Notes under the pieces: generated by a model | Database searches by the model: none | What the model was told of the DNA's origin: nothing | Seen by the model: the letters and a program-made list of their open reading frames with translations, nothing else | Position numbers and translations under genes: made by a program | Assembly (NCBI GenBank): GCA_963737655.1 | Contig: CAVTTN010000002.1 | Span: 4,192,001-4,256,000 of the forward strand | Direction of reading: 5' to 3' | Source of the DNA: an uncultured Planctomycetota bacterium | GTDB taxonomy: Bacteria; Planctomycetota; Planctomycetia; Isosphaerales; Isosphaeraceae | DNA length: 64,000 nt | In this document: positions 4,202 to 20,805 of the stretch, piece by piece | How positions within the stretch are numbered: the first letter of the stretch is position 1 | Layout of the letters: each line of letters begins with the position of its first letter

Positions 4202-4298
4202 CTCGCGAAGGGGGAATTCTGCCGGAGGCCCCGAGCCCCGGCCGATAATCCGAGGAGACGGCCGACGATCCCGACGGCCGAGGCTCGGAGAGGCCCTC

Positions 4299-5594
4299 GT
4301 GAGCGACCACCTCGGCCCGGACGCCCCCCGATCGGCGCCGTTTTCTGCCTTCGCGGATCTCGCCGCCCGGATCTCGGCGAAGGCCGCGGTCGGCCTGGGG
4401 CTGATCGCCGCGACGAGCGTGGCCATCGCCGTGGCCGCCTCGCCGTGGCTGGTCCCTCCATACCTCGGGTTGATGGCCTGGCTCCTCGCGGCCCCGGGCA
4501 AACCCGCAGAACCCGAGGCGCCGGACCGCTCGAATCCGCCCGACTGCCCGACCGAAACGGCCATCCCCTCGGCGATCGAGCAGGCGGCCGAATTCGAACC
4601 CGAACCGTCCCCCGAACTGCCTCCTCCGCCTCGCAAGCCGCGAAAATCGAGAGGGAAAGGCCGGGCGAAGGCCATTCCGGCCGCCTCGGCGGAGAAGCCG
4701 CAGGCCACCTGGGTCCAGGTCGAGCCGGGGAAGTTCGTCCGCGTCGAGATCGCGCCGGGGTCGCCGGTCGAGGCCGATTCGGAGTCGTCGGAATCGACCA
4801 ATCCGGTCTCCGAGTCCTCCTCGGAGGCGGAAGACGCGGCGATCACCTCGCCCGATTCCGTCGAGGAGGAGAATCCACCCGAGGTCGAAGCGATTGCGCC
4901 GTCTTCATCGCCGCAAGACCCCGCCTCCACCGAGGTTCGAGCCGCCTCCGATCCTGGTCCCGAGGCCGAAAACGCGGCCACGCCGGAGACGGTCGAGCGG
5001 TCCGCCCCCGATTCGGACGACGGGAATCGGGACGAGATTCCCCTGGAAATCGCCGACGCCTCGCCCTCGGGGAATCGAGACGAGCACGAGGAGGCCGATG
5101 GTCCTTCCCCCCAACCGATCACCCTCGATCCGCCGCTCCCGGTCGCCTCGGAATCGCCATCGCCTCGATGGCCAGGCCCAACGATTGGGCCCGTCCGTCG
5201 AGATCGCGCCATCCGAGGGGCCGGCCCGCGCCGCCGGGGGATTTCCCGGACGAGGAGCGCGGCCAATCGACCCGGACCTCGTCGGGCGATCGCGGCCCCG
5301 AGGGCGAGCCGGGGGCGGGCCCCTCCTCGTCCCCGACGACGGTTTCTCTTCTCACTCGGGATCGGGGCGGCTCGCGAGCTTGGACGCGGGACGCCCCGTC
5401 TCGTTTTGAGCTATCGGGGCGGCGATTCGGGACCGTCCATCACGAACCGGCGGATCAAGTCCGGCAATTCGGCCGAGAACCGGCTCCGGGGCATCACCGG
5501 GTCGCAGCCGGCGTCCCGGGCGGCGTCGAGCGCGGCAACATCGACGTGGGAGCCGAAGGCGAGGAATCGCGTCTCGGGAGCGATCGTCCGGTAG
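4299..5594 (+). CDS. Hypothetical protein: N-terminal hydrophobic segments, acidic/Pro-rich disordered body, basic tail; 3' end uncertain
   Basis: Hydrophobic GLGLIAATSVAIAVAASPWLVPPYLGLMAWLL, WVQVEPGKFVRVE motif; the ORF end overlaps the convergent gene, so the true stop may be earlier (about 5409 with a frameshift). Confidence 0.55.
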   Translation: MSDHLGPDAPRSAPFSAFADLAARISAKAAVGLGLIAATSVAIAVAASPWLVPPYLGLMAWLLAAPGKPAEPEAPDRSNPPDCPTETAIPSAIEQAAEFEPEPSPELPPPPRKPRKSRGKGRAKAIPAASAEKPQATWVQVEPGKFVRVEIAPGSPVEADSESSESTNPVSESSSEAEDAAITSPDSVEEENPPEVEAIAPSSSPQDPASTEVRAASDPGPEAENAATPETVERSAPDSDDGNRDEIPLEIADASPSGNRDEHEEADGPSPQPITLDPPLPVASESPSPRWPGPTIGPVRRDRAIRGAGPRRRGISRTRSAANRPGPRRAIAAPRASRGRAPPRPRRRFLFSLGIGAARELGRGTPRLVLSYRGGDSGPSITNRRIKSGNSAENRLRGITGSQPASRAASSAATSTWEPKARNRVSGAIVR

Positions 5595-5806
5595 GCGATC
5601 AGGGCCTCGGGACGAACCAGGGGGCCGGCGGCCAGGTCCACGAACACGGACCTCGGCTTCCATTGCTCGATCAGCGAGGTGGCCAGCGATTCGTCTCCGG
5701 CCGTGAGCATCCTCACGCCGAGCTCGCGGGCGGTGCCGGTGATCTTCGAGGTGAAGATCAGGTCGCGGCTCAGGAGGATGGCCGAGGGACCGTCGGCGGG
5801 GGTCAC
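5411..5806 (-). CDS. Atypical single-domain receiver (response regulator-like) protein
   Basis: beta/alpha pattern ILLSRDLIF...VFVDLAAG...FLAFGSHVD...AGCDPVMPRSRF; GTGA overlap with the upstream HAD stop. Confidence 0.7.
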   Translation of the reverse strand: MTPADGPSAILLSRDLIFTSKITGTARELGVRMLTAGDESLATSLIEQWKPRSVFVDLAAGPLVRPEALIAYRTIAPETRFLAFGSHVDVAALDAARDAGCDPVMPRSRFSAELPDLIRRFVMDGPESPPR

Positions 5807-6501
5807 GGCGAGACCTCCGGGGCGAACATCGTCTCGACCCACCGCGGCCCGAGCCCTTCGAGCCCGGAGACCACGGCGTCGGCCCCGGCGCCTCGGAGTT
5901 CGCCGTCGGCATACGTGTTCGAGACGCCCACGGCCCACATCCCGGCGGCCTTGGCCGACTGGATGCCCGCCAGGCTGTCCTCGAACACCAGGCAATGCGC
6001 GGCCTCGAGGTCCTCGCCCACCGAGGATCGGAGGGCGTCGAGCGCGAGCAGGTAGCCCTCGGGGTCCGGCTTGCAGTTGGCCGTGTCCTCGGCCGAGACG
6101 ATCGCCAGGACCCGGTCGCGGACGCCCAGGCGATCCAGGCTGTACTCGATCTCGGGCCGCAGAGCCCCGGAGTTGATCGCGATCGGCCATCGGCCGGCGA
6201 GGCTCCTGAGCCCGTCGCCGGCCCCCGGGAAGTAGCGGAGCCCGTCCTTCGCCCGGGGGACGTACCGCGCGGCCTTCCGGGCGATCAGCTCGTCGAGCCT
6301 CGACGGCGGGGCGGCCTGGCCGGCGTCGGCCAGGGCGGCCTCGAAGCATCGGCGGTCGTCGTAGCCGAGGTATTTCTCGTGATAGAGCGCCTCGGTCAGC
6401 TCCACGCCTTCCTCGGCGAGGACCTCCCGGAACAGCTCGAAATGGACCGACTCGTCATCGACGAGGACGCCGTTGAAGTCGAAGATCACCGCGCGGATCA
6501 T
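5803..6501 (-). CDS. HAD family phosphatase (beta-PGM/CbbY-like)
   Basis: VIFDFNGV, INSGA, CKPDPEGY, VFEDSLAGIQSAKAAGM. Confidence 0.9.
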   Translation of the reverse strand: MIRAVIFDFNGVLVDDESVHFELFREVLAEEGVELTEALYHEKYLGYDDRRCFEAALADAGQAAPPSRLDELIARKAARYVPRAKDGLRYFPGAGDGLRSLAGRWPIAINSGALRPEIEYSLDRLGVRDRVLAIVSAEDTANCKPDPEGYLLALDALRSSVGEDLEAAHCLVFEDSLAGIQSAKAAGMWAVGVSNTYADGELRGAGADAVVSGLEGLGPRWVETMFAPEVSP

Positions 6502-6606
6502 GGGGGAGGGCCAACCGGGGAGGGGAGGGAGGGGGATGAACACGAATCGGAGACGGAATCCGTGTTCATCAAGGAACGCGAGGTCGGCCGGGCCGGCCTC
6601 GGGGGA

Positions 6607-6954
6607 TCAGATGGCCTCGGGTCCGCGCTCGCCGGTGCGGATGCGGATGCAGTCGTCCATCGGCAGGATGAAGATCTTGCCGTCGCCGATCTTGCCTTCG
6701 GGACCGGTGCGGCCGGCCTGGATGATGGCGTTGACCGTCGGCTCGACGAAGTCCTCGTTGACGGCGATCTGGAGCTCGATCTTGCGGAGGAGGTTGACGG
6801 TGAACTCGTGGCCTCGGTAGACCTCCGTGTACCCCTTCTGACGGCCGAAGCCCTGGACGTCCATCACCGTCAGGCGGAAGACCTCGACGTGCGAGAGGGC
6901 CTCCTTGACGGCTTCCAGCTTGGTGGGCTGGATCACAGCGATGATGAGCTTCAT
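6607..6954 (-). CDS. glnB: P-II nitrogen regulatory protein (GlnB/GlnK family)
   Basis: GFGRQKG, EVYRG T-loop, GKIGDGKIFI, IRIRTGERG. Confidence 0.93.
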   Translation of the reverse strand: MKLIIAVIQPTKLEAVKEALSHVEVFRLTVMDVQGFGRQKGYTEVYRGHEFTVNLLRKIELQIAVNEDFVEPTVNAIIQAGRTGPEGKIGDGKIFILPMDDCIRIRTGERGPEAI

Positions 6955-7334
6955 CGATCCCCTCTCCGGGTCGCGGACGGCCCAACGTCCGCGGGGCCGG
7001 ACAAGGCCGCGCGGGGCCGCTTCTGACCCCAATTGAACCGGAAACCCGTCCGGCGTCAACAGAAAAGACCCGGCGGGCCGGGCCGTCTCCTCCTCGGAGG
7101 GAGCGACTTCGGACGAGTTCCGGCCGGCATGGGTCCCGATCTCGGCGGCCGCGGAGAGACGGCCCCCGGGGTCCGAGGGCGGAACACTCGCCGCCGGGAC
7201 GCCTTGCGGCCTCGTCATCCGAGAACGGTCCGGCCCGGACGGCGTCGGCTCCGGAGCGGTCGATCAGGGCGACCCCGAGTCCGGCGAGACGCCGGGCCGG
7301 GCCGGGATTTCCGGCCCGACTCGGGGGGATCGTC

Positions 7335-7691
7335 TCAGAGACCCGGGCGAGCCGGGGCGTCCGGACCGGCCGGAGGCGAGGCCGGGACCACCGGAGGGGC
7401 CGCCGGGGCCGCCGGCCCCGGGGGCGTGGCCGGGGCGATCGTCGGCGGGTCCAGGCCGGGGTCCGAGGGCTCCGACCCGGCCGCCGGGGGCGTCGGGCTG
7501 AACGGACCGGACGAGGGGACCGTCTCCGGCTGGGCCACCGGGACCCCGCCGTAGGGGTACACGGGCGCTCCGCACCCAGGACCCGTGCAGGGCAACGGCA
7601 TGTCGTCGCAGGTGTCGCAATGGGCGCACCCGGCGGCTCCCAGGGCCGCCAGCGACGCCAGGGCGAACAGGTTCCGAGCCGACCGCAACAT
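7335..7691 (-). CDS. Small Cys-rich, Pro-rich putative lipoprotein
   Basis: Signal peptide with lipobox-like AAGC, then CAHCDTCDD..PC..PGCG; GGAG RBS. Confidence 0.7.
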   Translation of the reverse strand: MLRSARNLFALASLAALGAAGCAHCDTCDDMPLPCTGPGCGAPVYPYGGVPVAQPETVPSSGPFSPTPPAAGSEPSDPGLDPPTIAPATPPGPAAPAAPPVVPASPPAGPDAPARPGL

Positions 7692-8134
7692 GGCGGTCTC
7701 CTTTCGCGAGGGGATTCCGCGCCGGGAAGGGCCTCCCCGAACCTCGGGGACGCCGGGCGAGCGGGCGGGCGCGTCTCGTCTCGGGCCCGGCGGCTCCGCC
7801 GCGATGGGGCCCGATCGCACCGCTCTCTTCGTTCGTCTCCGCTTCATCGACCCCGCCCCACGCCCCGCAATACCGATTCGAGCCCGCAGCCCCGACGACC
7901 CGGACGGTCCTGCCACCTGGCTAAACCTTGAGGATCGCGGCCTTTCGTCGGCCTCGGCCCGATCCGCGACGCCTCGCCCTCGGAATCCCTCGTCGGCGGC
8001 CATCCAGGTTCCTCGGGGGGTCGAGGAAAGCGAGGAGAATCGGCGTGAAAAGGCAAATCGGGTGCTCTGGGTCGAGCGGAGGTGACCCGCGGATCAGGAA
8101 AAAAACTCCCCATGGCCTTTCTTAAGTAAACCTG

Positions 8135-8162: not shown

Positions 8163-8276
8163 GAGGAGGGACCGGACTCGACCCGGGCGGGATTGACCTC
8201 TCCGCCCGCCCCTCGACGCCGCCCTTCCCGCCGAGCCGACGAGGAGACGCGACGCCGCGCCAGGAGATCCCCCGCC

Positions 8277-9128
8277 ATGATGCCTCGCCGTCGCCGACGC
8301 GATACCGATCGCAACTCGATTCTTCATCTGTACTTGCAGGACATCAACAACACCCCGCTCCTCTCGGCCGAGGAGGAGAAGTCCCTGGCCCATCGCGTGG
8401 CCGAAGGCGACCCGGAGGCCCGCGACCACATGGTCAAGGCCAATCTCCGGCTCGTCGTGAGCATCGCCCGAGGCTACCTGAATAAGGGACTCGGCCTCGA
8501 AGACCTGATCGAAGAAGGCAACCTCGGCCTGATGAGGGCCGTCGAGGGGTTCGACGGCGAGATGGCCAACCGGTTCAGCACGTATGCGAGCTACTGGATC
8601 AAGCAGTCGATCCGCCGCGCCGTGATGAATCAGGGCAAGCCGATCCGCCTGCCGGCCTACATGGTCACGCTGCTCTCGAAGTGGAAGCGGGTCACCAACG
8701 TCCTGACCGAGGAGCTCGGCCGCCCCCCCCTGCCCGAGGAGGTGGGCCGGGCCCTCCGGCTGTCGAAGAAGAAGGTCGGGATCGTCACCAAGGCCATCCG
8801 GGTCAACAACTTGACGCCGCACTCCGACGGCGACGACGAGGACGGGGGGATGCTCGACGACCTCCTGACCGACGACCGCAGCCGGGCCCCGGACGACCTC
8901 ATGATCGAGGCCGACGACATGACCCGGATCCTCGACAGCCTCGAACGGCTGGAGGCGAGGGAGACCGCCGTGATCCGCCTGAGGTTCGGCCTCGACGGCG
9001 ACGGCCCGAAGACCCTCCGGGAGATCGGCGAGACCCTGGGGCTGACCCGCGAGCGGGTCCGCCAGCTCGAACACGGGGCCCTCATGAAGCTGATCGCGGC
9101 CGTGGACACCGAGCGCTCGGCCGTCTGA
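8277..9128 (+). CDS. RpoD/RpoS-family sigma factor lacking region 1.1 (group 2-like)
   Basis: LYLQDI, MVKANLRLVVSIA, DLIEEGNLGLMRAVE, RFSTYASYWIKQ, TLREIG..LGLTRERVRQLE. Confidence 0.92.
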   Translation: MMPRRRRRDTDRNSILHLYLQDINNTPLLSAEEEKSLAHRVAEGDPEARDHMVKANLRLVVSIARGYLNKGLGLEDLIEEGNLGLMRAVEGFDGEMANRFSTYASYWIKQSIRRAVMNQGKPIRLPAYMVTLLSKWKRVTNVLTEELGRPPLPEEVGRALRLSKKKVGIVTKAIRVNNLTPHSDGDDEDGGMLDDLLTDDRSRAPDDLMIEADDMTRILDSLERLEARETAVIRLRFGLDGDGPKTLREIGETLGLTRERVRQLEHGALMKLIAAVDTERSAV

Positions 9129-9144
9129 TCCGCAGCCCCGACCA

Positions 9145-9260
9145 CCACGACGCCACGAACGCCAGGGCCGACGCAAAGGGAATCCGGGAAATGGGTTGAG
9201 GACGCCCTCCTCAATCTCCCCGATCCCCGTGCGTCGGCCCTGGCGTTCGTGGCGTCGTGG
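9145..9260. repeat. Intergenic inverted repeat (31-bp perfect arms), MITE/REPIN-like
   Basis: CCACGACGCCACGAACGCCAGGGCCGACGCA at 9145-9175 and its exact reverse complement at 9230-9260. Confidence 0.85.
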
Positions 9261-9472
9261 CCGTCGGGGCTGTTCCCCGGTTTTCGCTTGATCGGCGGCT
9301 GGTGCGGCCGGACGATCAGGGCGCGGGGCTTCCGAGAATCGCGCTTCGGGCGCAATAATCGGATGGGGGGCCCGAATAGCCATGTAGGGGACGCGGGCCA
9401 GAGGCGACAGCCGGCCCGGGTCGCCGCGACGACCGCCTGCCTGCCCGTGGCCTTAACTCCAGGAGACGTCCG

Positions 9473-10285
9473 ATGATGTGCAAGGTTGTGAAGAAGGGGC
9501 TGATCGGGATGGCCATCGGGGCGGGCGCCCTGGGCCTCCTCTACGGCACCTCGGCCCCCAGCTACGTGAAGACCGCCTTCTTCAAGGTCCGCGAGCGGGC
9601 CCAGAGGTCGGTGCCGATCGAGTTCGAGATCGACAAGGCCCGCCAGGAGATCGCCCAGCTCGAGCCGGCGATCAACTCCGGGATCGAGGCGCTGGTCAAG
9701 GCCGAGGTCGAGGCCGAGCACCTCGACAAGGAGATCGTCGCCACCCGAGAGGAGCTGAACCGTGAAGGCCGGGAGCTCCAGGCCCTCAACGACCACCTCA
9801 AGACGGGCGACCTCCACCTGACCAACGGCGTCGCCTACACGGCCAAGGAGGTCAAGACCGACCTCGCCCGCCGGATGGACCACTACCGCCTGGTCAAGAA
9901 CATCCTGGCCGAGAAGCAGGAGACGCTCAAGGTCCGCCAGAAGAACGTCCTGGCCGCCCGCGAGAACCTCGTGGCGATGCAGGCCGCCAAGCGCGACCTG
10001 ATGGCCCGCGTCGAGGGGATCGAGGCCCGCCTGAACCAGATCCGCGCCAGCCGGGCCACCAACGACTTCACCTTCGACGACACGGCCGTCGGCAAGGCGA
10101 AGCAGACCGTCAGCGAGCTGGAGACCAAGCTCGAGGAGATGGTCAAGATCGACGACTACAAGGGCCGCTACGCCGATCGCGGCGTGTCGGTGACCGTCGA
10201 GCCGGGCCGGGACGTCGCCAAGGAGATCGACGCCGAGTTCGGGACCTCCCCGAAGGCGAGCGAGAAGGTCGGCGAGAAGTATTGA
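9473..10285 (+). CDS. Coiled-coil protein with an N-terminal hydrophobic anchor; PspA/IM30-like
   Basis: Long heptad-rich helices, VPIEFEIDKARQEI start of hairpin, C-terminal F-D...ELETKLE; family call is by pattern only. Confidence 0.8.
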   Translation: MMCKVVKKGLIGMAIGAGALGLLYGTSAPSYVKTAFFKVRERAQRSVPIEFEIDKARQEIAQLEPAINSGIEALVKAEVEAEHLDKEIVATREELNREGRELQALNDHLKTGDLHLTNGVAYTAKEVKTDLARRMDHYRLVKNILAEKQETLKVRQKNVLAARENLVAMQAAKRDLMARVEGIEARLNQIRASRATNDFTFDDTAVGKAKQTVSELETKLEEMVKIDDYKGRYADRGVSVTVEPGRDVAKEIDAEFGTSPKASEKVGEKY

Positions 10286-10305
10286 TCGGACCGAGCCGAA
10301 GCCAA

Positions 10306-10345
10306 CCCCGCCCCCTCGGAGGATCGATCCTCCGAGGGGGCGGGG
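10306..10345. repeat. Perfect 40-bp palindrome downstream of the PspA-like gene
   Basis: CCCCGCCCCCTCGGAGGATC|GATCCTCCGAGGGGGCGGGG. Confidence 0.85.
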
Positions 10346-10479
10346 CCGCCCTTCCGAGAATCGCGACGATCCCACGGAACGCGGCGAACCAACGGCCCCC
10401 CAAGGGCGAACCGACGATCAGATCCGGGCGGGAGTTGAGGGACGCGATCCCCATGGTCAACCTGGGCGGTGAGCACACC

Positions 10480-12048
10480 ATGTTGGGACAATGGCGAATC
10501 GTCTTGAAGCAGGCGGAGGAGGCGGCCCGGGCCGGCCGGTTTGACGAGGCGCTGGCCCTCGCCGCCCGGCCCGACGTGGCCGACCACCGCCAGGCCGTGA
10601 TCCTCCGGGCGAAGCTCGCCTCGGACCTCCTGGGCCGGGGCATCCGCCGAGGAGAAGCCGACGACGCCCCCGGGGCCATCGCCGACCTCGACCTGGCCGA
10701 GGCCCACGGAGCGGCCCCCGACGCCCTGGCCTCCGCCCGGATGAAGCTGGCCGAGGGCCTGGCCGAGGAGATCGAGGCCGAGTTCTCGGCCGGCGAGCCG
10801 GCGAGGGTGGCCGACCGGGTCGCCGGCCTGGCCTCGCACAAGGTCTCCGGCCCGCGGCTCCGTCGCCTCCGAGAGGCCGCCGAGGCCTGGCGGAAGGCCC
10901 TCGACGACGCCCGCCGAGGCGAGTTCGGCCTGGCCGAAGAGGGCCTGGATCGCGCCAACCGGCTGGCCGGCGGACTCGGCGCCGACGCCCTGGCGGCCTC
11001 CTCCCGAGAGGTCGCGGGCCGCCGGGACAAGGCTCAAACGCGTGTCGAGCGGCTCTATCAGGCCCTCTCCGCCGGCAAGTGGGGCGAGACCCTGGCCGCC
11101 GCCGAGGCGGTCCTGGAAGTCATCCCCGATCACCCCGCGGCCCGCGGGGCCCGCACCCGGGCCTGGCAGCAGATCGGCGCGATCAACCCGGCGGCCACCC
11201 TGCCCGGCCGGTCGTCCCGAGGAGTTCCGCCGACCGCGCCGATCCCCGCACCGGCCGAACGGCCGGCGCCGATCCGGTTCCTCGCCAGCTCGTCGCCGTC
11301 ACCGGGCCCCGCGCCGGCTGCCTCGCCCAATCGAGCCGGGATCGTCTTCCTCGACTCGGCGCCGAAGTCGAGCGAGGCGTCCACCGTGCCCTGGAACGAC
11401 GCGACGACCCGCCGGGCGTCGATCGCCTCCTCGCGTCCCGAGTCGAGGCTCCGAGGCCGCTTCCTCCTCTGGGCCGACGCCATCGGCGGCTATCTCGTCT
11501 GCCTGGACGACGAGGTCATCCTCGGCCGATCCGGGCCGGACAGCCCGGCCGACGTCCCGCTGCTGGGCGACCTCTCGCGGGACCACGCGGCGATCATCCG
11601 GGACGGGGACGGCTACGTCCTCAAGGCCAAGCACGCGACGTTCCTCAACGGGCGGAAGGTCGATGCGGCCCCGCTGCGAAACGGCGACGTGATCCGCCTG
11701 GGCTCGACGGTGGAGCTGGAATTCCGCCAGCCCAGCCCGGTGAGGCTCGACGGCCCGGCTGGAGATCGTCAGCCGCCATCGCCTGCCGCTGGCCGTGGAC
11801 GGGGTGATCCTGATGGCCGAGACGTGCATCGTGGGGCCCAGCCCCCAGGCGCACGTCCCCGCGGCGAACCTGGAGGCCCCGGTGGTCTTCTATCGGCAAG
11901 GCGGCGGCCTCTGGTGCCGGGCCGCCGGCGAGTTCTCGGTGGACGGCAAGGCGGCCTCGGGCCGGGCGCCCTGGCGCTCAGCTCGTCGGTCGTGGGCGAG
12001 GGCTTCTCGTTCGGCCTGGAGCCCCTGAATCCGAACGCCTCGGCCTGA
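10480..12048 (+). CDS. FHA-domain protein with N-terminal helical/TPR-like repeats; two compensating frameshifts (about 11744 and 11972)
   Basis: ILGR...DLSRDHA...FLNGRKV...GDVIRLG FHA motif; the sensible sequence STARLEIVSRHRLPLAVDGVILMAETC lies in an alternative frame. Confidence 0.85.
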   Translation: MLGQWRIVLKQAEEAARAGRFDEALALAARPDVADHRQAVILRAKLASDLLGRGIRRGEADDAPGAIADLDLAEAHGAAPDALASARMKLAEGLAEEIEAEFSAGEPARVADRVAGLASHKVSGPRLRRLREAAEAWRKALDDARRGEFGLAEEGLDRANRLAGGLGADALAASSREVAGRRDKAQTRVERLYQALSAGKWGETLAAAEAVLEVIPDHPAARGARTRAWQQIGAINPAATLPGRSSRGVPPTAPIPAPAERPAPIRFLASSSPSPGPAPAASPNRAGIVFLDSAPKSSEASTVPWNDATTRRASIASSRPESRLRGRFLLWADAIGGYLVCLDDEVILGRSGPDSPADVPLLGDLSRDHAAIIRDGDGYVLKAKHATFLNGRKVDAAPLRNGDVIRLGSTVELEFRQPSPVRLDGPAGDRQPPSPAAGRGRGDPDGRDVHRGAQPPGARPRGEPGGPGGLLSARRRPLVPGRRRVLGGRQGGLGPGALALSSSVVGEGFSFGLEPLNPNASA

Positions 12049-12139
12049 TCCCCGTCAAGATCCTCCCCACGCGGTCGAATCGCTTCCCGGCCCGACGACG
12101 AGCGGTCCGCAACAGGGCGCCGACAGAGAGAGGAACCCG

Positions 12140-14105
12140 ATGAGCGCGACGGCCCGAGATTACCCGGACGCCCCCCCGATGGACGAGACGATCCCCTACG
12201 CTTCGCCCGACCGACCCTCCGGACCCGACGGGGAGCCGCCCATGCCCAGGACCCCGGACGCCTCGCCCCAGCGCTACACCTACGGCTCCGGGGCCCGGCC
12301 CCTGGACGGCTTCACCATCCGTCGGGCGATCGGCCGGGGCGGGTTCGGCGAGGTCTACTACGCCACCTCCGACGCCGGCAAGGAAGTCGCCCTGAAGCTG
12401 ATCACCCGGAACCTCGAGGTCGAGCGCCGCGGGGTGGTCCAGTGCATGAACCTCAAGAGCCCCCACCTCGTCGCCATCCACGACCTGAAGCAGAACGACG
12501 GCGGCGACTCGTTCGTGATCATGGAATACGTCGCCGGGCCCAGCCTCGCCCAGGTCCTCGCCCAGAGCCCCGCCGGGCTCGCCTCGGCCGAGATCCGGAT
12601 GTGGCTGAAGGGCCTGATCGACGGCGTGGCCTACCTCCACGACCACGGGATCGTCCACCGGGACCTCAAGCCCGCCAACCTCTTCCTCGAAGAGGGGATG
12701 GTCAAGATCGGCGACTACGGCCTGACCAAGGCCATCACCGGCGGGACGCAGAACCCCGGCCATTCGGAGTGCGTCGGCACCTGCCACTACATGGCGCCGG
12801 AGACCTCCACCGGCAAGTATCATAAGGCCATCGACATCTACGCCATCGGCGTGATCCTCTACGAGATGGTCACCGGCCGCGTCCCGTTCGACGGCGAATC
12901 GGTGGGCGAGGTGCTCATGAAGCACCTGACCAGCCGGCCGGACCTCACCGTCCTGCCCGAGCCGTTCAAGAGGATCGTGACCCGGGCCCTGGCCAAGGAC
13001 CCCAACCATCGCCCGGCCCGGGTGACCGACCTCCTCCTGCCCGGCGACCTGCCCAGGGAGCCGGAATTGCGGTTCATCGGCGACAAGTCCTGGCCGCCCG
13101 GCACCCCCGGGCCCGGCCAGGCCGCCGCGGAGCCGAAGAAGGACGACGTCCTGAGGATCAACGCCGAGGAGTCCTCGGTCTTCTACATCGGCCCCGAGAC
13201 CCGTCCCCAGCCCCGGGGCGACCGGAACCGGCCCACGACCCGGACCGCCGGCCTGGCCCGGGCCTGGGCCTGGTGGCGGAACCCGCAGTTCGTCCGGCCG
13301 TCGAGGCGGCCCGCGCCCTGGCCGGCGCCCCCGGCCCCGGTGGCGGCGGCCCCGCCTCGGCCGCCGACCCCTCGACCGGCCCCGGCGCCTCCTCCTCGAC
13401 CGATGCAGACCCAGGTCCGCACCGAGCCGGCCCCTCTCGGACCGCCCCCGGCCATGCCCAGCACGCGGGTCCGCGTGGCCGAGGCTCGCCGGGTCGATGC
13501 TCTGGGCGGCCCCGACCGCGGCCCTGGGCTCGGCGATCCTCCTGCCGCTCTTCTCCCTGGCCGAGGGCACCCGGGCCACGGACCCGAGGCAGATGTCCCT
13601 GGTCTTCGGCACCGCCCTGCTCTCCTCCTGGGCGATCCTGGTCGCCGGCAAGCTCTGGGAAGGCAAGAAGAAGGCCACGTTGCGGAAGATGGTCGCGATG
13701 GCGATCCCCGGCGCCCTGATCGGCCTGGCCGGCTTCGGCCTCTGGGACTCGACTCACCTGGGCCCGGTCCAGGATTCGGTGCTCGGCGACCTGGCGAACG
13801 TCTCGACGTCGACCCTTGGCCCGAAGCTGGCCGGGGCGACCACCTTCGCCTCGTTCTTCAGCCTGGCGATGGCCTCGTTCCCCTGGTGGGCCGCCACGGC
13901 CAGGGACCGCCGCCGCCGGGTCCGGCTCTGGCCGGTCCTCCTGGCCTCGTTGCTGGGCGGGACCGAGGCCCTGCTGTTCCCGGGCGTCCTGCCGTTCGGC
14001 CCCCTGGCCTTCGGTGTCGGCGTGATGGTGGCCGGCGTGGTGAGCCCCTGGAGCCGGGAGGCCGCCACCTACGCCCGGGAGGCCCGCCGTCGGCGGGTCG
14101 CCTGA
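12140..14105 (+). CDS. Ser/Thr (Hanks-type) protein kinase with a multi-TM C-terminus; frameshift near 13485
   Basis: IGRGGFGEVY, VALK, HRDLKPAN, IGDYGL, YMAPE; Pro-rich linker; TM domain in the ORF 13497-14105. Confidence 0.9.
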
Positions 14106-14228
14106 GCCTTCCCCGGGCCAACCGTTCAAGGAATCGTCCCCGAGAGCGAATCTCCTGGTGAAGTGACGCCGCTCCGAGAGGCCGGGCCGATCGGCCCGAA
14201 CCGAGGACCCGGCAAGGACCGAATCGCC

Positions 14229-14828
14229 ATGAACCGCCTCTTGCTCTCGCTCCTGATCCCCGCAATCGCCGCGGTCGGCCTGGCCGGCGAGGCCCAGGCC
14301 AAGGCGCCTCGGCCCCCGAAACGGGACCATCGCTCCGCACCTCCGGCACCGGCCGCCGCCCCTCGGGAGCTGCGGACCGTCCAGAGCGAGCTGATGGCCA
14401 GCGTCGAGCGCTCCGAGAACGACCTGACCGTCCAGGTCAAACGGGCCATCGTCGACTGGCTCGCGCAGGACGGCGTCCCCGCCTCGTGGACGCCTCCGAA
14501 GGGCCTCGTCGAGTCGATGCTCGTGGGGAAACCGGCCGTCGAGCCGGTCCAGTGGAAGGACCTCCAGGTCTTCCGGGCCTCTCGCCAGGTCGATTTCTCC
14601 CCCTCGAAGAAGGCTGAGCTGCTGGAGGTCTTCCACCGCCAGCAGGCCGGTCGAAGGCTGGCGATCCTGGGCGGGGGACTCGTGTTCGTCCTCTCCCTGC
14701 TCGGGGCCGTGGCCGGCTACATCCGGGCCGACGAGGCGACCCGGGGCTATTACACCAACCCCCTGAGGCTGGTCGCGGCGGCCGGGGTGTTGACGGCGGG
14801 CGCGGCGGTTTACGGACTCCTGGCCTGA
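14229..14828 (+). CDS. Hypothetical exported/membrane protein (signal peptide + two C-terminal TMs)
   Basis: MNRLLLSLLIPAIAAVGLA signal; YIRADEATRGYYT between two TM helices. Confidence 0.75.
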   Translation: MNRLLLSLLIPAIAAVGLAGEAQAKAPRPPKRDHRSAPPAPAAAPRELRTVQSELMASVERSENDLTVQVKRAIVDWLAQDGVPASWTPPKGLVESMLVGKPAVEPVQWKDLQVFRASRQVDFSPSKKAELLEVFHRQQAGRRLAILGGGLVFVLSLLGAVAGYIRADEATRGYYTNPLRLVAAAGVLTAGAAVYGLLA

Positions 14829-14846
14829 TCGCTCCGGAGGTTCGCC

Positions 14847-15260
14847 ATGATGCTCTCCCTGGTCCTGCTGATCGGCCTGGCGACCACGACGGCCTGGATC
14901 CTCTCCCCGACGTTCCGGGGAGGGCTGCGGCACCTCGCCACCAGGCCCCCCCTGGCGGCGGTCCTCTGGTCGGCCCTGGGGCTCAGCGTCCTGCTCCTCC
15001 TGACCGACCCGCCCTCGGAGCTCGCCTTCGCCTTCGCCGTCGCGGCGATCCTGGCGTTCCTGGTGCTCTGGGTCCGCGAATTCCTCGGCCTGATGACCCT
15101 GACCGACGACGCCTTCCCCGGCCGCCACGACAAGCTGATCTGGGTGGCCCTGATGGTCCTCCTCCCGCCGGTCGGCCTGGCCAGCTTCTCCCTGTTCCGC
15201 CGGGCCTACTGGCCCGCGACCGAGAAGCCGGCCCCGGGACGGGCCTCGGAACTCCTGTAA
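14847..15260 (+). CDS. Small membrane protein with a PLDc_N-like C-terminal hairpin
   Basis: Four hydrophobic segments; FPGRHDKLIWVALMVLLPPVG matches the K..W......P..G pattern. Confidence 0.75.
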   Translation: MMLSLVLLIGLATTTAWILSPTFRGGLRHLATRPPLAAVLWSALGLSVLLLLTDPPSELAFAFAVAAILAFLVLWVREFLGLMTLTDDAFPGRHDKLIWVALMVLLPPVGLASFSLFRRAYWPATEKPAPGRASELL

Positions 15261-15342
15261 GAGGCTCCCGGGGCCGGAGGCTCGGAACCGTCAGAAACGG
15301 TGTCCGATCGGCTCCGGAAAAACCCCCCTGGAATGAGGAAAA

Positions 15343-15416
15343 CGAGTAGGTCCGACTTCAGTCGGGCCTAGAAAAAGGTCTTATTTTCTAGGCCCGACTG
15401 AAGTCGGACCTACTCG
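15343..15416. repeat. GTAG-type REP doublet (33-bp perfect inverted repeat)
   Basis: CGAGTAGGTCCGACTTCAGTCGGGCCTAGAAAA, 8-nt loop, exact reverse complement; each arm holds an internal CCGACT-TC-AGTCGG hairpin. Confidence 0.85.
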
Positions 15417-15625
15417 ATCCCCCTCCATCACCGGGTTTTCTTCAGAGCATGTCCGATCGATATTTGTACCCCAAAATCGATCCGACACCATTTCCGAGTC
15501 CCCATCTCCCGCTTCCCGTCCTGGCTTCCCCGTCTTGCCTCCGGCCGAGGGATCGGGGATGGTGAAGGCGGGCCGTGGCCGATCGGATCGGCCCCTCGGG
15601 CCCCTTTCCCTTCGGGTCTTGATCG

Positions 15626-16928: not shown

Positions 16929-17606
16929 TCACGGGAACGGGCAGCCCGAATAGAGCTCGTCGGGCGCGTCGGTCGTGTCGATCGGCTCCTCCTTGAGCCC
17001 CGAGAGCCGGGCGATCCGGGCGTTGAGGTCGCGGAGCATGCTCACCGAGAACCCCGGCCAGAAGGCGTCGAGCTTGCCGTCGCGGTCGATCAGGGCGACA
17101 TACGCCGAGTTCTCGGCGCCGAACTCCCGGGTGATCTTCAGGGACTTGTCGGGGACCAGGGGGAACGGCACGCCGTTCCGGTCGGCCCACTTGCGGGCGT
17201 CCTCGGCGTCGTCGTCGATGATCCCGACGAACCGGACCCGCCCTCGATAGGAGGCGTGGAGGCCGTTGAAGAACCCTTCGGCGGCGACGCTGCACGGGCA
17301 GCCGTCCTGGATGAAGACCACGACGACGGGCCCGGTCTTCCACCACTGGGCCAGGTCCACGAGCTTCCCCTCGGCGTCCTTCTCCCGAAAGCTCGGGGCG
17401 GCCTGGCCCTGCCGGGTCGTCGCCCGATCGAGCATCGGGGGAGAGACCTTGTGCCTCTCCTCGGTCGCCGTGACCGTGAGGACCGGCGCGGCCGGGCCGG
17501 CGGCCTTCCCCGGGCGGCCCCTCTCGGCCTTCAACCGGGTCGAGGCATAGAGCCCGGCGACGATCACCAGGAGCAGGGCGAGGGCCAGGAGCGATCGAGT
17601 CTTCAT
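16929..17606 (-). CDS. Exported AhpC/TSA (redoxin) family protein
   Basis: APSFREKDAEG, VVVFIQDGCPCS, FPLVPD, N-terminal TM, C-terminal SGCPF. Confidence 0.8.
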   Translation of the reverse strand: MKTRSLLALALLLVIVAGLYASTRLKAERGRPGKAAGPAAPVLTVTATEERHKVSPPMLDRATTRQGQAAPSFREKDAEGKLVDLAQWWKTGPVVVVFIQDGCPCSVAAEGFFNGLHASYRGRVRFVGIIDDDAEDARKWADRNGVPFPLVPDKSLKITREFGAENSAYVALIDRDGKLDAFWPGFSVSMLRDLNARIARLSGLKEEPIDTTDAPDELYSGCPFP

Positions 17607-17824
17607 CGGGATTCGACTCGGAAGGCCGGGCGCGATCGAAGCCGGGACGGTTTCATGCAGACCCTCATCGTATCGCGACGGACCGAAAACGGCCAGGGTT
17701 CGCGGGACGGGAACTTGCTCGGGTGGCTCGGTTCGAGCTAAGATTCTAGTGCGCCTTGTCCTCCCCAGGGCGCCCCTCGCTCGGTCGCGGCGGGCGACGT
17801 CACCCTACCCGATCGGGACCCTCC

Positions 17825-20348
17825 ATGGTCGAGCCTTCGGCGTCGCGATTCTGGCACGCGGCCCTTCGCAGCGGATTGCTCGACGAGTCGGCCCTCCAGG
17901 CCGCCTGGGACGAGATCCCTCCGGAGAAGAGGACGCACGACGCCGTGGATCGCCGCCTGGCCCGGCAGGTGGTCAACTCGGGCAAGCTCACGCTCTGGCA
18001 GGCCCAGCAGATGCTCGCGGGGCGCTGGCAAGGGCTGAGGATTGACAAGTACGTCCTCCAGGACGTCATCGGCCACGGCGGGATGGGCCGGGTCTATCTC
18101 GCGAAGGACTCCCGGCTCGGCCGCAAGGTGGCCCTGAAGATCCTCTCCCGCGAGAGGATGAACAACCCCCGGGCCCTGGCCCGGTTCCGTCGCGAGGCGA
18201 AGGTCGGCGCCCAGCTCCAGCACGAGAACCTCGTGAGGATCTACGACGAGGGCGAGGCCCACGGCGTCCGGTTCCTCGTGATGGAGTTCATCGAGGGCAA
18301 GACCATCGGCCACCTGATCGCCGACGGAGGGCCGATGCCCCCGGCCATCGCCGCCGACATCGCCCGCCAGGTCGCCCTCGGCCTGGAGCACCTCCACCAG
18401 AAGGGCCTGGTCCATCGCGACGTCAACCCGATGAACATCCTGATCGGCCGCGACGGGATCGCCAAGCTCACCGACCTCGGCCTGGCCATCGACCTGGGCG
18501 ACCTCGACGACATCGTGACCCGCGACGGCGCGACCGTCGGCACGTTCGATTACATCTCGCCCGAACAGGCCCGGCACTCGCGATCGGCCGACATGAGGAG
18601 CGACATTTACTCGCTCGGCTGCACGCTCTATCACATGCTGGCCGGCCGGGTCCCGTTCCCCATGCCCAGCCTGCCGGAAAAGCTCTACGCCCACCAGGTG
18701 GCCGAGCCCGAGGGCCTGGAGCACGTCGTGCCCGACCTGCCCGAAGGGCTCGGCGACGTCGTCCGCAGGATGATGAAGAAGAACGCGGCCGAACGGTTCG
18801 TCCAGCCGATCGAGGCGGCTCGGGCCCTGGAACCGTTCGCCCGGGGCCATGCCCCGGTGGCGGGCGTGGGGGCGTGGTCGGCCTCGCCGTCGAACACCAA
18901 CGGCTCGACCGTCTCCAGCACGTCGCAGGCCGGCCTGACTCCCCCGGGGTCCGACCCCGAGCTCGACCCGTCCCGGGGGGTCGCGGCGAGCCCCTCCGGC
19001 CCTCTCCGCCGGGTCCGACCCGATGGAATTCATCCCGAAGCTCGATTTCGGCCCGCCCGAGCCGCTGTCGCTCTCGACCACGAGGAAGCCGGCCCGGGCC
19101 CCGAAGCCGGCCCAGGCCAGACCGCCCCGATCCCTGCCGATCGTGCCGATCCTGATCGGCTCGGGCGTGGTGATCCTCGCGGCGATGGTCGCCCTGGCGG
19201 TCCCGGCGGTCCTCAGGGCGATGAAGGATCGCCCCTCGACCCCGAAGGCCGCGCCCCTCTCGGCCGAAACCCCGGAAACGCCCCGGCCGCCGCCCGCGTC
19301 GCCCGGGTCGGCCCCGGCCGAATTCGCGATCCGCGAGGCCGACGGCGAGGAGAGGCCCGAGGCTTCGCTCCGAGACGCCATCCGCCACGCCTCCGGCCGG
19401 GACAAGGCCGAGATCGTCGTGAGGTCGAAGGCCCTGACCCGCCCCGGAGAGGTCGGCAAGGCCCTGAGGGTCCCCAGGGGCTTGCTGGTGATCCGGGCCG
19501 ACGGCGACGCCCACCCCGAGCTCCTGATCGAGCTCTCGAAGAAGGCCCCGTGGATCGAGGTCGGCCCCCAGGCCCGCCTGAGCTTGATCGGCTTCAAGAT
19601 CCGCCAGGAAGTGCCGATCGCCGATTCCTCCAACGCCCCCCCGCCGGCCCTGATCGCCTCGCTCGGCAACGTTTCGCTCGAAAAATGCGAGTTCTCCACC
19701 ACCGGAAGCGACCGATCGAGCCGGGTCCTCGCCTCCGAGGGGCTGGACACCCGGATCACCGATTGCTTCTTCGAGGGATTCGATCGCCCGCTGGCCCTCC
19801 AGTTCTACCCCGGGGCCGACGTCCGCCTGACCAACTCGATCTTCGTCCGCGACATCACGGGAGACCCCCTGGCCGGCTGGGCGATCGGCGCCACGGGCAA
19901 GACGGCGATCAACGGGACGAAGCCGAGGAAGCTCAGCCTGGATCGCTGCACGGTCCTCGGCGCCGGCCTGCTGGCGGCGGAGGGATTCTCGGCCGAGGCG
20001 CCTCTGGACGTCTCGTTGAAGCAGACGGCCGTGAGCGCGAAGTCGCTCCTCCTGACGGAGCTGCCCAGGCCGGCGCTGGCGAAGGCGATCCACTGGTCGG
20101 GCCAGGAGGACTGGTTCGCGATCTCCGAGGCGTCCTGGGCGATGGTCGCCCCGAAGGCGTTCGACGCCCTGGCCGGGGGCCTGACCGACCTGAAGGCCTG
20201 GACGGCCGCCGTCGGCCCGGAGGCCGGAAGCCGCGAGGAAGTCCTCCCGTTCGCGGCCGGCTCGCCCAAGGAAGGCAGCCCTCCGAGGGACTTCGCCATC
20301 ACCGTCGAGAACGGCCAGCCCCCCGCCGGGGCGAAGCTCGGTCCCTGA
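17825..20348 (+). CDS. Ser/Thr protein kinase with a TM and a C-terminal beta-helix-like domain; frameshift near 18975
   Basis: IGHGGMGRVY, HRDVNPMN, DLGLA, GTFDYISPEQ; C-terminal half in the ORF 19023-20348 with one TM. Confidence 0.88.
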
Positions 20349-20352
20349 GGAG

Positions 20353-20766
20353 CTACTCCTCGCCCGGGAGCAAATGCCGGCTCGAATGGTAGATCCGCTT
20401 GTGACGGGTTTGCGCCGCCGGGGTGGGTTCGGCCTTGCTCTTGAGGTCGGCGAGGTTGGCGGCGCAGAACGGGCAGGCCACCACGTCGATGTGGAACTTG
20501 ATGTATTCGGCGTGGTCGGGGTCCAGGGCGTCGAGCAGGTAGCTTCCCAGGGTCTGCCGGGACGCGCACGTCAACCTCGATCGGTTCCAGATCGCCCCGA
20601 GCGAGTGGAGGCCGGCGTCTCCCCGGTCGAGCCGGACCTCTTCGAGCTGGTGGCGGAGGTCGGCCGAGTCGCGGAGCGCCTTCTCCACCCGGGCCATCTC
20701 CTCGGGCGCGAGGCTCTCGGCGAGGTAGGCTTTCAGGATCTCGACGTCAATCGCACCGTTCCCCAT
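20353..20766 (-). CDS. Putative zinc-binding anti-sigma/ECF partner protein
   Basis: H-x5-CxxC (FHIDVVACPFC) plus an upstream Cys; directly downstream of the ECF gene. Confidence 0.7.
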   Translation of the reverse strand: MGNGAIDVEILKAYLAESLAPEEMARVEKALRDSADLRHQLEEVRLDRGDAGLHSLGAIWNRSRLTCASRQTLGSYLLDALDPDHAEYIKFHIDVVACPFCAANLADLKSKAEPTPAAQTRHKRIYHSSRHLLPGEE

Positions 20767-20805
20767 CGGCTTCGGACCCTCGCGGACGGACATTCGGATC
20801 AAGAC

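Follow-up and report, generated by a model that had tools for sequence, protein, structure and literature searches.

The PspA/IM30/Vipp1 proteins (PF04012) are soluble and cytoplasmic and have no transmembrane helix, a description from which the first gene product of the locus studied here departs. In the Psp response, PspA is accompanied by PspB/PspC and by the sigma-54 activator PspF; neither planctomycetes nor FHA domains are mentioned in the portions of two Psp surveys drawn on here (PMC11237479, PMC9239133). Kinase-linked ECF sigma factors include the ECF43 pairs EcfP/PknT of Vibrio parahaemolyticus, related to polymyxin resistance, and EcfK/PknS of Xanthomonas citri. The group ECF61 is said to originate from Jogler et al. 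2012. The summary of this group in Casas-Pastor et al. 2021 (PMC7826278) describes planctomycete ECF sigma factors with a conserved kinase of at least five membrane helices, usually encoded two genes upstream; according to that summary the promoter motif predicted for the group lacks conservation, and no anti-sigma factor is named.

Here we analysed a 64,000-nucleotide stretch of DNA (the window) from an uncultured bacterium of the Isosphaeraceae (Planctomycetota). The five genes under study are the front part of a cluster conserved among planctomycetes. A promoter-like motif that precedes both this cluster and known envelope-stress genes predicts an undescribed membrane-stress response, in which a probable PspA-like protein controlled by a membrane Ser/Thr kinase and a co-encoded ECF sigma factor would constitute a novel form of Psp-like stress control.

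Gene organization and conservation of the cluster

The five co-oriented genes of the original prediction were found where it had placed them, at positions 9473-15260 of the window (Table 1). In assembly GCA_963737655.1, genes 2 and 3 are split into more than one open frame; relative to members of the same genus, gene 2 carries one extra base at ~11745 and a compensating loss of one base at ~11972, and gene 3 carries one extra base at ~13485. The same genes are single frames of 510 aa in relative L021 (gene 2) and of 644 aa in relative L022 (gene 3). The four genes tested were intact in 8/8 relatives from fragmented assemblies (at least 160 contigs), and at least one of them was split in 8/9 relatives from assemblies of 110 contigs or fewer. 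Since the splits track few-contig assemblies, the three frameshifts are probably long-read errors.

Table 1. Position of the cluster genes, predicted promoters and rearranged elements in the window
Feature	Position	Strand	Evidence or remarks
Predicted ECF-type promoter, operon head	9352..9382	+	-35 AATAAT 9354-9359, -10 CGAA 9373-9376
Gene 1, 270-aa helical hairpin protein	9473..10285	+	hhalign, structure model, Foldseek
Gene 2, TPR-like N-terminus and FHA	~10480..12048	+	Pfam; two compensating frame breaks, ~11745 and ~11972
Second motif copy, before kinase gene	12055..12085	+	20.3 bits, 85 nt 5' of the kinase gene
Gene 3, Hanks Ser/Thr kinase with membrane tail	12140..14105	+	PF00069; frame break ~13485
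Weak third motif copy, before gene 4	14126..14156	+	14.4-14.8 bits, below the 16-bit line
Gene 4, 199-aa membrane protein	14229..14828	+	no Pfam family
Gene 5, 137-aa membrane protein	14847..15260	+	weak PLDc_N match
Palindromic repeat element, left edge of rearranged block	15311..15448	.	65-nt arms, 77% complementary
Zinc-finger protein, 137 aa, soluble	20353..20766	-	PF13490 zf-HC2
ECF sigma factor, 207 aa	20824..21447	-	PF04542, E 8e-16

Conservation of gene order in related genomes, on which the original prediction depended, was examined and found to go far beyond chance: the coiled-coil, FHA and kinase genes remain together across Planctomycetota, in several orders. At 31 loci of the same class, two of which end at contig ends, gene 1 is followed downstream by an FHA gene (28 loci), a kinase gene (26), an ECF gene (22) and a zinc-finger gene (20), and all four are present in 19/31. 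In other classes the order was FHA-kinase-ECF-zinc finger-gene 1 in 10/10 loci, which had been chosen since the ECF and zinc-finger genes lay upstream of gene 1. The module of five genes proposed earlier was thus drawn too narrowly, as the conserved core also has the ECF sigma factor and zinc-finger genes; this pair had been missed because it is inverted to positions 20353-21447 in the window.

The gene-1 family was detected in 54/201 genomes of the phylum. Among the 31 genomes searched, 30 carry it and 4 pass the PF04012 cut-off; G019 (97% complete), the sole searched relative without gene 1, gave no ECF match either, and where gene 1 stands alone, in two genomes, the ECF gene lies elsewhere and the promoter motif is retained. 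No canonical PspA was found in the host genome (88% complete). The cluster is also present in a cultured species, Blastopirellula marina.

The first gene product

Gene 1 encodes a 17-residue hydrophobic N-terminal helix (anchor, residues 3-23) followed by long helices, and is probably a divergent relative of PspA/Vipp1 (ESCRT-III superfamily) with an added N-terminal anchor helix. Its profile matched PspA in hhalign at 90.4% and 90.0%, with an E-value of ~1.5e-6 (1.4e-6) over 142-146 columns; the match begins in register with helix 0 of PspA and with the conserved Pro that precedes helix 1, whereas reversed-profile controls gave 2.3-5.5%. The structure model has helices at residues 29-45, 49-111, 124-197, 205-234 and 248-256 in a PspA-like order, the short helix 4 and the helix 5 elements being also present. 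With this model, the first ten Foldseek matches were all Vipp1 (E 0.0024-0.011), and no match reached E 0.001. In VIA-align, Vipp1 ranked 23 (Z 10.4, rmsd 2.8, 155 aligned) and PspA 26 (Z 10.3, rmsd 2.4, 122 aligned), both behind unrelated coiled coils. Every score of PspA likeness was marginal, and VIA-align did not separate the gene-1 protein from other coiled coils. Neither of the two outcomes that were to refute the original prediction was seen: gene order is conserved, and there is a match to PspA/Vipp1, albeit a weak one, in the profile comparison and in Foldseek.

No PF04012 match was obtained for gene 1 in Pfam, nor was this family among the 25 listed for 55 relatives; of 7 distant homologues one matched it, at 29.8 bits and thus below the cut-off of 33.9. 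We did not file gene 1 as a member of PF04012 because no match was found at the Pfam gathering cut-off. A local PspA profile was matched at E 0.01 by 2/208 family members. In a search of 30,912 genome ORFs together with 22 PspAs, a PspA was the best non-self match of the family profile (E 4.9e-4); conversely, the 40 best matches of the PspA profile included 32 members of the gene-1 family. Automatic naming in UniRef labels two homologues 'PspA/IM30 family protein', and automatic 'signal peptide-containing' names also occur in the family, which in a quick tree sits on a long branch apart from the 22 canonical PspAs.

Helix 0 has a mean hydrophobic moment of 0.39 (206 sequences), compared with 0.48 in the 22 PspAs, and as judged from these values the family shares with PspA/ESCRT-III proteins an amphipathic helix 0, a candidate for membrane binding. 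The anchor helix is conserved in the family (mean hydropathy 2.1), with an A-x-A cleavage-like motif in only 8/206 sequences; the net charge is +2.1 before it and +1.2 in the helix after it. The anchor could place the protein on the periplasmic side, unlike PspA.

The FHA protein, the kinase and the membrane proteins

The product of gene 2 comprises a helical TPR-like N-terminus (TPR_9 at E 0.07 only), a Pro-rich linker, an FHA domain (~11518-11703; PF00498, E 7e-9) and a second, degenerate, beta-rich part that is FHA-like in our reading. The FHA domain in the window has both the G-R and the S-x-x-H motifs, with a short loop before N-G. The phosphothreonine-binding Arg of the G-R motif was present in 16/17 members from the Isosphaeraceae and in 1/27 others; the reading of phosphothreonine proposed earlier may at most hold in the Isosphaeraceae, and is not a property of these FHA proteins as a whole.

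Gene 3 joins a kinase domain (PF00069, E 3e-47), through a Pro-rich linker, to a multi-pass tail with about six hydrophobic segments by eye, or 3-6 membrane helices by a crude hydropathy count. Its catalytic motifs are intact, and 80% or more of 38 kinase sequences keep each of the Gly loop, the Lys-Glu pair, HRDLKPxN, DxG and APE, with DYG where DFG is usual. Gene 4, present at 23/31 same-class loci, encodes a signal/anchor helix, a soluble domain and two C-terminal hydrophobic helices with a conserved Y-I-x-A-D-E-x-T-x-G-Y-Y-T loop; it gave no match in Pfam and no named Atlas family, and may be a sensor or may work together with the kinase or with gene 1. As stated earlier, gene 5 encodes a membrane protein of the cluster; its PLDc_N match (PF13396; E 0.019, 15.4 bits) falls below the cut-off of 23.3, its homologues scoring 14.8-18.0 bits. 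It was found at 10/17 loci of the Isosphaeraceae and at 0/14 other same-class loci (10/31 in all), and is peripheral: accessory and family-restricted.

The ECF sigma factor and its zinc-finger partner

In relatives, the ECF gene comes immediately after genes 4/5 and in the same orientation, and the zinc-finger gene comes after it in both gene orders. In the window, the pair is 5 kb from the operon in an inverted block (16929-21447), according to the block order in L267, L268 and L269; the palindromic repeat element at the left edge of the rearranged block (15311-15448) matches 76 places of the genome over at least 80 nt. The ECF gene of the window is cut off from the operon promoters, and no copy of the two-box motif described below was found upstream of it. 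The encoded protein shares 88% identity with the ECF that L021 encodes within its operon. By gene context this sigma factor is ECF61-like: a planctomycete ECF with a kinase at position -2, or at -3 in loci that have gene 5.

Region 2.2 of the sigma factor reads A-A-E-D, with E48 conserved in at least 85% of sequences and D49 invariant in 35/35, and the Thr54 position is Ser or Thr in 87% of 39 sequences. This does not fit a phospho-activated sigma factor of the ECF43 type, in which the acidic DAED residues are lost and a conserved Thr stands in their place.

The zinc-finger protein matched PF13490 on residues 11-37 (E 4.8e-5; 23.8 bits, cut-off 22.2), and W60, C67, F91, H92, C98 and C101 are invariant. 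Its spacing is H-x5-C-x2-C, the usual one of ZAS zinc fingers being H-x3-C-x2-C. These features make it a candidate, putative anti-sigma factor of the ZAS (zf-HC2) type.

A conserved promoter motif and its predicted regulon

An ECF-type two-box motif, AA(T/G)A(T/A)-N13/14-CGAA, is conserved upstream of gene 1 in 30 loci, with an information content of 22.2 bits vs 12.1-12.3 in three shuffles. Using a matrix trained on 28 relatives, with the window left out, the operon-head site, 121 nt 5' of the gene 1 start codon, scored 21.8 bits and ranked 11 on the 7.6 Mb contig. At least 16 bits were reached in 21/22 held-out loci, four of these loci being close kin of a training locus, and in 0.5% of 19,009 random 400-nt windows. 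The copy before the kinase gene, a site absent from training, has a counterpart of at least 16 bits at the equivalent place in 13/17 same-family loci, and the position before gene 4 scores 17.7-23.8 bits in L021, L026, L028 and L030. Outside the class, the motif precedes gene 1 in 3/36 loci, gene 1 being the last gene in many of those.

Genome-wide, 76 sites scored at least 18 bits, vs 8-25 with five permuted matrices; many of them are noise, because 37/76 lie inside called genes. Among the 20 intergenic sites with a downstream gene, 14 precede a protein with a hydrophobic segment, vs 214/713 random positions, and strand-flipped sites gave 7. In relatives, the motif was found before LemA genes (12/20 orthologues, 0/4 paralogues), HtrA (6/13), SPFH (2/2) and DUF697 genes (3/4), the last of which we take to be the YcjF family. 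LemA reportedly drives membrane reorganisation and interacts with PspA (bioRxiv 10.64898/2026.10.21.759321), and both Band-7 (PMC11237479) and ycjXF (PMC3041696) have been linked to PspA/envelope stress. The presence of the motif before the operon and before envelope-stress genes predicts an autoregulated envelope-stress regulon; from linkage only, we infer that the cluster ECF, and not another sigma factor, reads it. No tie to the planctomycete internal membranes, which the original prediction had brought up, was found, the predicted targets being general envelope-stress genes.

Discussion

The original interpretation was borne out in its gene order and, weakly, in its PspA match, and had to be revised in the extent of the module. 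The reading we favour, and consider reasonably probable, is an autoregulated cell-envelope-stress system in which the membrane kinase would switch on the ECF sigma factor, and this in turn the operon and the LemA, HtrA, SPFH and DUF697 genes. Its best-supported output is transcriptional, because the conserved core includes the ECF sigma factor and the zinc-finger protein. In such a system, the membrane tail of the kinase would sense membrane damage, probably with the gene-4 protein, and the kinase would phosphorylate the zinc-finger partner (on the conserved Thr66 or Ser129), freeing the sigma factor, or alternatively the sigma linker Ser118. The sigma factor would then read AA(T/G)A(T/A)-N13/14-CGAA, creating a positive feedback. 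The PspA-like protein, tethered by its own N-terminal helix and not recruited by PspB/PspC, would polymerise on the membrane and patch it, and the TPR-FHA protein may be a scaffold, whose reading of phosphothreonine would be family-specific at most.

A more tentative idea, which we think possible though doubtful, is that planctomycetes have an ESCRT-III branch of their own, which a transmembrane helix keeps permanently in the membrane and which may face the periplasm. This branch would be the leading effector of a kinase/anti-sigma/ECF regulon that also supplies the membrane shapers LemA and SPFH. If true, this would widen the known modes by which the fold attaches to membranes, and would mean that a bacterial ESCRT-III acts while fixed by an anchor, or on the outer side of the inner membrane. 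The setting would be the planctomycete inner membrane, which is deeply folded.

It is rather unlikely that the regulon is real and gene 1 is an unrelated anchored coiled-coil hairpin, possibly a periplasmic scaffold or an envelope-spanning adaptor of PcsB/EnvC-like shape. An in-register profile match that is lost on reversal (90% vs 2-5%), the helix 4 and helix 5 elements of the model, and the reciprocal results of the profile searches (PspA as best non-self match; 32/40 top matches in the family) argue against it, even though gene 1 has no PF04012 match, unrelated hairpins score up to Z 12.6 in VIA-align, PcsB comes just behind the Vipp1 block in Foldseek (E 0.018 vs 0.011), and the signal-anchor-like N-terminus, the 'signal peptide-containing' names and the long branch apart from the PspAs would all fit such a protein.

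Improbable, in our opinion, is the wiring of the original prediction, in which the kinase would directly target either the PspA-like protein or the FHA adaptor and so control polymer assembly for membrane remodelling (vesicles, invaginations, division), with the sigma factor only setting expression levels. In some distant loci (L136-L143) a kinase gene adjoins gene 1, three of them also giving a weak FHA match, and no ECF gene was found in the 11 kb covered upstream; control of this kind has been proposed for archaeal ESCRT loci that include kinases and FHA domains (PMC10936438), and LemA is reported in membrane reorganisation and in interaction with PspA. Also cited in its favour is the paralogous locus L043, which keeps gene 1 together with a membrane gene and the FHA, ECF and zinc-finger genes; as these are retained without the kinase, the parts of the cluster are modular. 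However, the phosphothreonine-binding Arg is missing in 26/27 FHA domains outside the Isosphaeraceae, the HtrA and DUF697 genes of the predicted regulon are typical of stress repair, and a family restricted to 54/201 genomes fits poorly with a core morphogenetic machine. Finally, activation of the sigma factor by direct phosphorylation of region 2.2, as in EcfP/PknT, with the zinc-finger and coiled-coil genes as passengers, is very improbable: ECF61 is listed among the phosphorylation-regulated groups and Thr54 is mostly Ser/Thr (87% of 39 sequences), but E48 and D49 are retained, unlike the STTA motif of EcfP, and in either gene order the zinc-finger gene comes after the ECF gene.

If the kinase-ECF envelope-stress system is true, the cluster would supply the missing Psp-like system of the many same-class planctomycetes without canonical PspA, and it would give a function, a promoter and a list of targets to a kinase-linked ECF group that lacks them in the published summary.

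Among known systems, the archaeal ESCRT loci of the main and Halo_FHA clades (PMC10936438) likewise encode a membrane kinase and an FHA protein next to an ESCRT-III-type gene, but they carry Vps4 and winged-helix proteins, neither of which was found among the products of the five genes and of the ECF pair. A PspA homologue, membrane anchor or sensor genes and a dedicated regulator are also combined in LiaIH-LiaFSR of Bacillus subtilis and ClgR-PspA-PspM of Mycobacterium; there, either a two-component system with a His kinase or an HTH activator has the role that a Ser/Thr kinase with an ECF would play here. With the Psp response the cluster shares a probable PspA-type first gene and small membrane proteins, and the SPFH/Band-7 and DUF697 genes predicted to be co-regulated here both have links to Psp. 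In contrast to Psp, gene 1 gives no PF04012 match, carries an extra anchor helix at its N-terminus and has an insertion at the tip of the hairpin, no match to the PspB, PspC or PspF families was found among the cluster neighbours, and a Ser/Thr kinase together with an ECF sigma factor would exert the control.

As in the ECF43 pairs, a membrane Hanks kinase gene lies beside an ECF gene, the output of EcfP is envelope-related, and the conserved Ser of the sigma linker recalls Thr106 of EcfK; unlike in those pairs, the cluster sigma factor retains the acidic residues of region 2.2 and has a co-encoded zinc-finger partner. The arrangement of ECF61 is that of the relatives without gene 5, membership being judged here from gene context. 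Compared with the summary of that group (PMC7826278), which includes neither a PspA-like or FHA gene, nor an anti-sigma factor, nor a conserved promoter, the cluster described here is predicted to have them all.

Gene content of the cluster and its conservation

The five co-oriented genes that the original prediction placed at 9473..15260 are present there on a single strand. The source genome comprises three contigs (7.6 Mb, 88% complete); near relatives of its proteins are assigned by name to Planctomycetota, one of them to Isosphaeraceae. Comparison with same-genus relatives revealed single-base breaks near 11745, 11972 and 13485 in genes 2 and 3, which encode the FHA protein and the membrane Hanks kinase, respectively; both insertions read GAGGCTC, where one relative reads GAGCTC or GAGCTT. 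Since 8/8 relatives with fragmented assemblies were intact and 8 of the 9 with few contigs were split, the comparison suggests that the breaks are probably long-read sequencing errors.

Synteny across Planctomycetota had been set as a test of the prediction, and gene 1, the candidate PspA/Vipp1-like gene, was found linked to FHA, kinase, ECF and zinc-finger genes in several classes. Gene order is conserved, but the conserved set is not the proposed five-gene module, as it also includes the ECF sigma and zinc-finger genes (see table). A gene-1 homologue was present in 30/31 searched genomes among relatives and in 54 of the 201 searched phylum-wide. Downstream of gene 1, the 31 same-class loci carried genes for the FHA protein (28), the kinase (26), the membrane proteins encoded by genes 4 (23) and 5 (10), the ECF sigma factor (22) and the zinc-finger protein (20), with FHA, kinase, ECF and zinc finger all together in 19. 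Another 22 named records, several of which stop early, contained the FHA gene in 20 cases, the kinase in 19 and the ECF in 16. In other classes the ECF and zinc-finger genes lie upstream of gene 1 in 13 loci, and the order FHA-kinase-ECF-zinc finger-gene 1 was seen in all ten of these that were re-fetched with longer upstream DNA. More distant loci still have a kinase nearby, with a weak FHA match in three, and for about ten distant loci a companion gene was not found within the stretch fetched. Two genomes with a lone gene 1 kept the promoter motif described below and have the ECF gene elsewhere; in the genome lacking gene 1, the search gave no ECF match.

Three distant gene-1 homologues (L121-L123) lie amid three to four Ser/Thr kinase genes. 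A kinase-less paralogous cluster, L043 (G025:C1:1785000-1799000, 3928-7777), retains the promoter motif and contains a gene-1 homologue, a membrane protein, an FHA protein, a different ECF and a short zinc-finger gene.

Features in and around the cluster
Feature	Position	Strand	Remarks
Sigma-70 gene, group 1/2-like	8193-9128		
Long hairpin	9133-9272		49-nt arms, 92% complementary; between sigma-70 gene and operon promoter
Motif site 1	9352		21.8 bits
Motif site 2	12055		20.3 bits; before kinase
Motif site 3	14126		weak
Palindromic repeat	15311-15448		65-nt arms; 76 genome copies of at least 80 nt; edge of inverted block
Second Ser/Thr kinase	17756-20348		membrane helix and C-terminal domain; frame-broken in window
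Zinc-finger gene	20353-20766	minus	
ECF sigma gene	20824-21447	minus	
Second small repeat family	20806-20836 and 23521-23551		core TGCATTTCATGCAC

Relative to two same-genus genomes, the block extending from the ECF gene to an AhpC-like gene is inverted in the window. On its flanks are the palindromic repeat, which we regard as MITE- or REP-like, and TPR and ASPIC-like genes that were not seen in those two genomes. The inversion junctions lie between complete genes, which favours a real rearrangement. One copy of the second repeat family is located between the ECF and zinc-finger genes, and the stretch 20791-20850 had about 240 genome matches. In several family members the sigma-70 gene is also found upstream of the operon, and the second Ser/Thr kinase gene is convergent to the zinc-finger gene.

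Relationship of gene 1 to PspA

In line with the proposed PspA/Vipp1-like nature of gene 1, profile and Foldseek comparisons gave matches to PspA/Vipp1, though weak ones; PF04012 gave no match to this gene. When the sequences of solved structures were searched using the family profile, every hit was a generic coiled coil (best E 0.044). NCBIfam gave only weak SMC-type matches for gene 1, and the ESM Atlas, queried with genes 1 and 4, only unnamed planctomycete clusters. A search of 1.8 billion representatives yielded 2118 matches at E 0.001; the best 150 of these were ordinary gene-1 family members, and deepening the profile with those 150 sequences did not raise the PspA match. On the side of homology, one gene-1 paralogue matched PF04012 at E 5.8e-7, under the cut-off. 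That gene 1 is instead an unrelated anchored coiled coil seems unlikely to us.

Aligned with a profile built from 22 canonical PspAs, the family profile scored 90% (E 1.4e-6), compared with 2-5% for reversed-profile controls; the alignment keeps its register from helix 0 up to and including the conserved Pro. Run against 30,912 genome ORFs together with the PspAs, the family HMM had a PspA as its best non-self match; conversely, the top two matches of the PspA HMM were gene-1 family members, with only 2/208 members passing E 0.01. The AlphaFold2 model of gene 1 (mean pLDDT 79) has helices at 29-45, 49-111, 124-197, 205-234 and 248-256, which is the PspA order, preceded by an additional helix at 3-23. 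The first ten rows of the Foldseek search were Vipp1 chains (E 0.0024-0.011); with VIA-align, Vipp1 (Z 10.4, rank 23) and PspA (Z 10.3, rank 26) were intermixed with, and not separated from, unrelated hairpins. Two gene-1 homologues already bear an automatic PspA/IM30 name. Altogether, we consider homology of gene 1 to PspA quite likely; the quick tree of the family is midpoint-rooted and carries no information on the direction of descent. Conservation extends to the added 17-residue hydrophobic helix, in which a cleavage motif is mostly absent; the charge pattern would fit a hairpin on either side of the membrane.

The gene-1 homologue of L043 is the only one with a PF04012 match. In a family of Planctomycetia (f4; L050, L051, L163-L172), 12/12 searched genomes encode, besides the gene-1 family, a short PF04012-positive protein, with frames mostly of 180-230 aa whose match is confined to positions 3 to about 123-175 of the model.

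Promoter motif and predicted regulon

Motif discovery in 30 upstream regions gave the two-box motif AA(T/G)A(T/A)-N13/14-CGAA, with an information content of 22.2 bits (12.1-12.3 in shuffles). With a scoring matrix built from 28 relatives, a score of at least 16 bits was reached in 21 of the 22 loci kept out of training (four being closely related to a locus in the training set), compared with 2/22 on the opposite strand and 0.5% of random windows. This matrix also located the three sites of the window given in the table. The internal sites of the operon, which are outside the training set of the matrix, recur in relatives. Of 36 loci from outside the class, three have the motif ahead of gene 1, and within the class it was found at 16 bits within 1.5 kb of 0/14 canonical PF04012 genes.

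Genome-wide, 76 sites scored at least 18 bits, against 8-25 with permuted matrices; 39 of them are intergenic and 20 are directed at a gene within 400 nt (7 when flipped). A hydrophobic segment is encoded in 14/20 target genes, versus a background of 30%, and this count is the unbiased test, as the 18 targets scanned with Pfam were hand-picked from the 76 sites. Ten of these 18 had no Pfam family; the names found were LemA, HtrA/DegP, SPFH/Band 7, two DUF697 proteins, a HAD hydrolase, a pentapeptide-repeat protein and a Prok-RING protein. The site was conserved before LemA in 12/20 orthologues and 0/4 paralogues, before HtrA in 6/13, before SPFH in 2/2 and before DUF697 in 3/4 (the opposite strand also scoring in 2/4), counts that are not independent because the genomes are kin. 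One predicted regulon member (L215, G000:C2:424257-425768) has two N-terminal membrane helices and a GTPase domain fused to DUF697.

Proposed mechanism and comparison with known systems

The predicted Hanks kinase keeps all its catalytic motifs. The FHA protein, proposed to read phosphothreonine, has the G-R and S-R-D-H motifs in the window, but the Arg of G-R is present in 16/17 members of the window's taxonomic family and in only 1/27 other FHA domains; phosphothreonine reading is therefore not conserved across the whole gene family. In the zinc-finger protein, a candidate anti-sigma factor, C67, H92, C98 and C101 are invariant, and Thr66 and Ser129 are conserved.

The original idea of a Psp-like stress system wired to kinase and FHA signalling is partly supported: the cluster is real and conserved, and probably under kinase control; ECF control would be added, and FHA reading is family-restricted at most. 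We conclude that the cluster probably encodes a Psp-like envelope-stress system controlled by the kinase and the ECF sigma factor. In this scheme, the multi-pass kinase would be activated by membrane stress, and the sigma factor would be freed by a phosphorylation whose most likely substrate is its zinc-finger partner. The sigma factor would then transcribe the operon together with membrane-repair and quality-control genes, and the anchored PspA-like protein would polymerise on the membrane. What was directly observed is the gene set and the motif; with each step inferred, we regard the chain as a whole as somewhat more probable than its alternatives combined. A remodelling polymer under direct kinase control seems improbable to us. 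The sigma factor has conserved Thr54 and Ser118. Its activation in the manner of EcfP, a member of ECF43, with the zinc-finger and coiled-coil genes as passengers, is very improbable considering the acidic region 2.2 residues discussed below.

A full-text literature search found no description of the cluster; a mention of the locus is possible in Jogler 2012 and Wiegand 2020, which lay outside its scope. Neither the PspA-like gene nor its zinc-finger, promoter and regulon companions turned up in the accessible portions of PMC7826278, PMC2754498, PMC10936438, PMC8999054, PMC13147305, PMC8103513, PMC3041696, PMC7619361 and bioRxiv 10.64898/2026.10.21.759321, or in text passages of the Psp surveys PMC11237479 and PMC9239133. 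ECF59 was ruled out as the group of this sigma factor, its kinase being at +1. RB138/RB140, a pair of Rhodopirellula baltica genes induced by stress, was considered as functional evidence but set aside: according to the accessible part of PMC2754498, its kinase is 987 aa long and is encoded downstream of the sigma factor.

The kinase-ECF link itself is already known, as far as the available part of PMC7826278 goes, as the context of ECF61, a planctomycete group with a membrane kinase nearby, and the ECF of this cluster matches that context as published in the consulted part of its supplement. In contrast to EcfP, in which the acidic region 2.2 residues are not kept, the sigma factor described here retains them.
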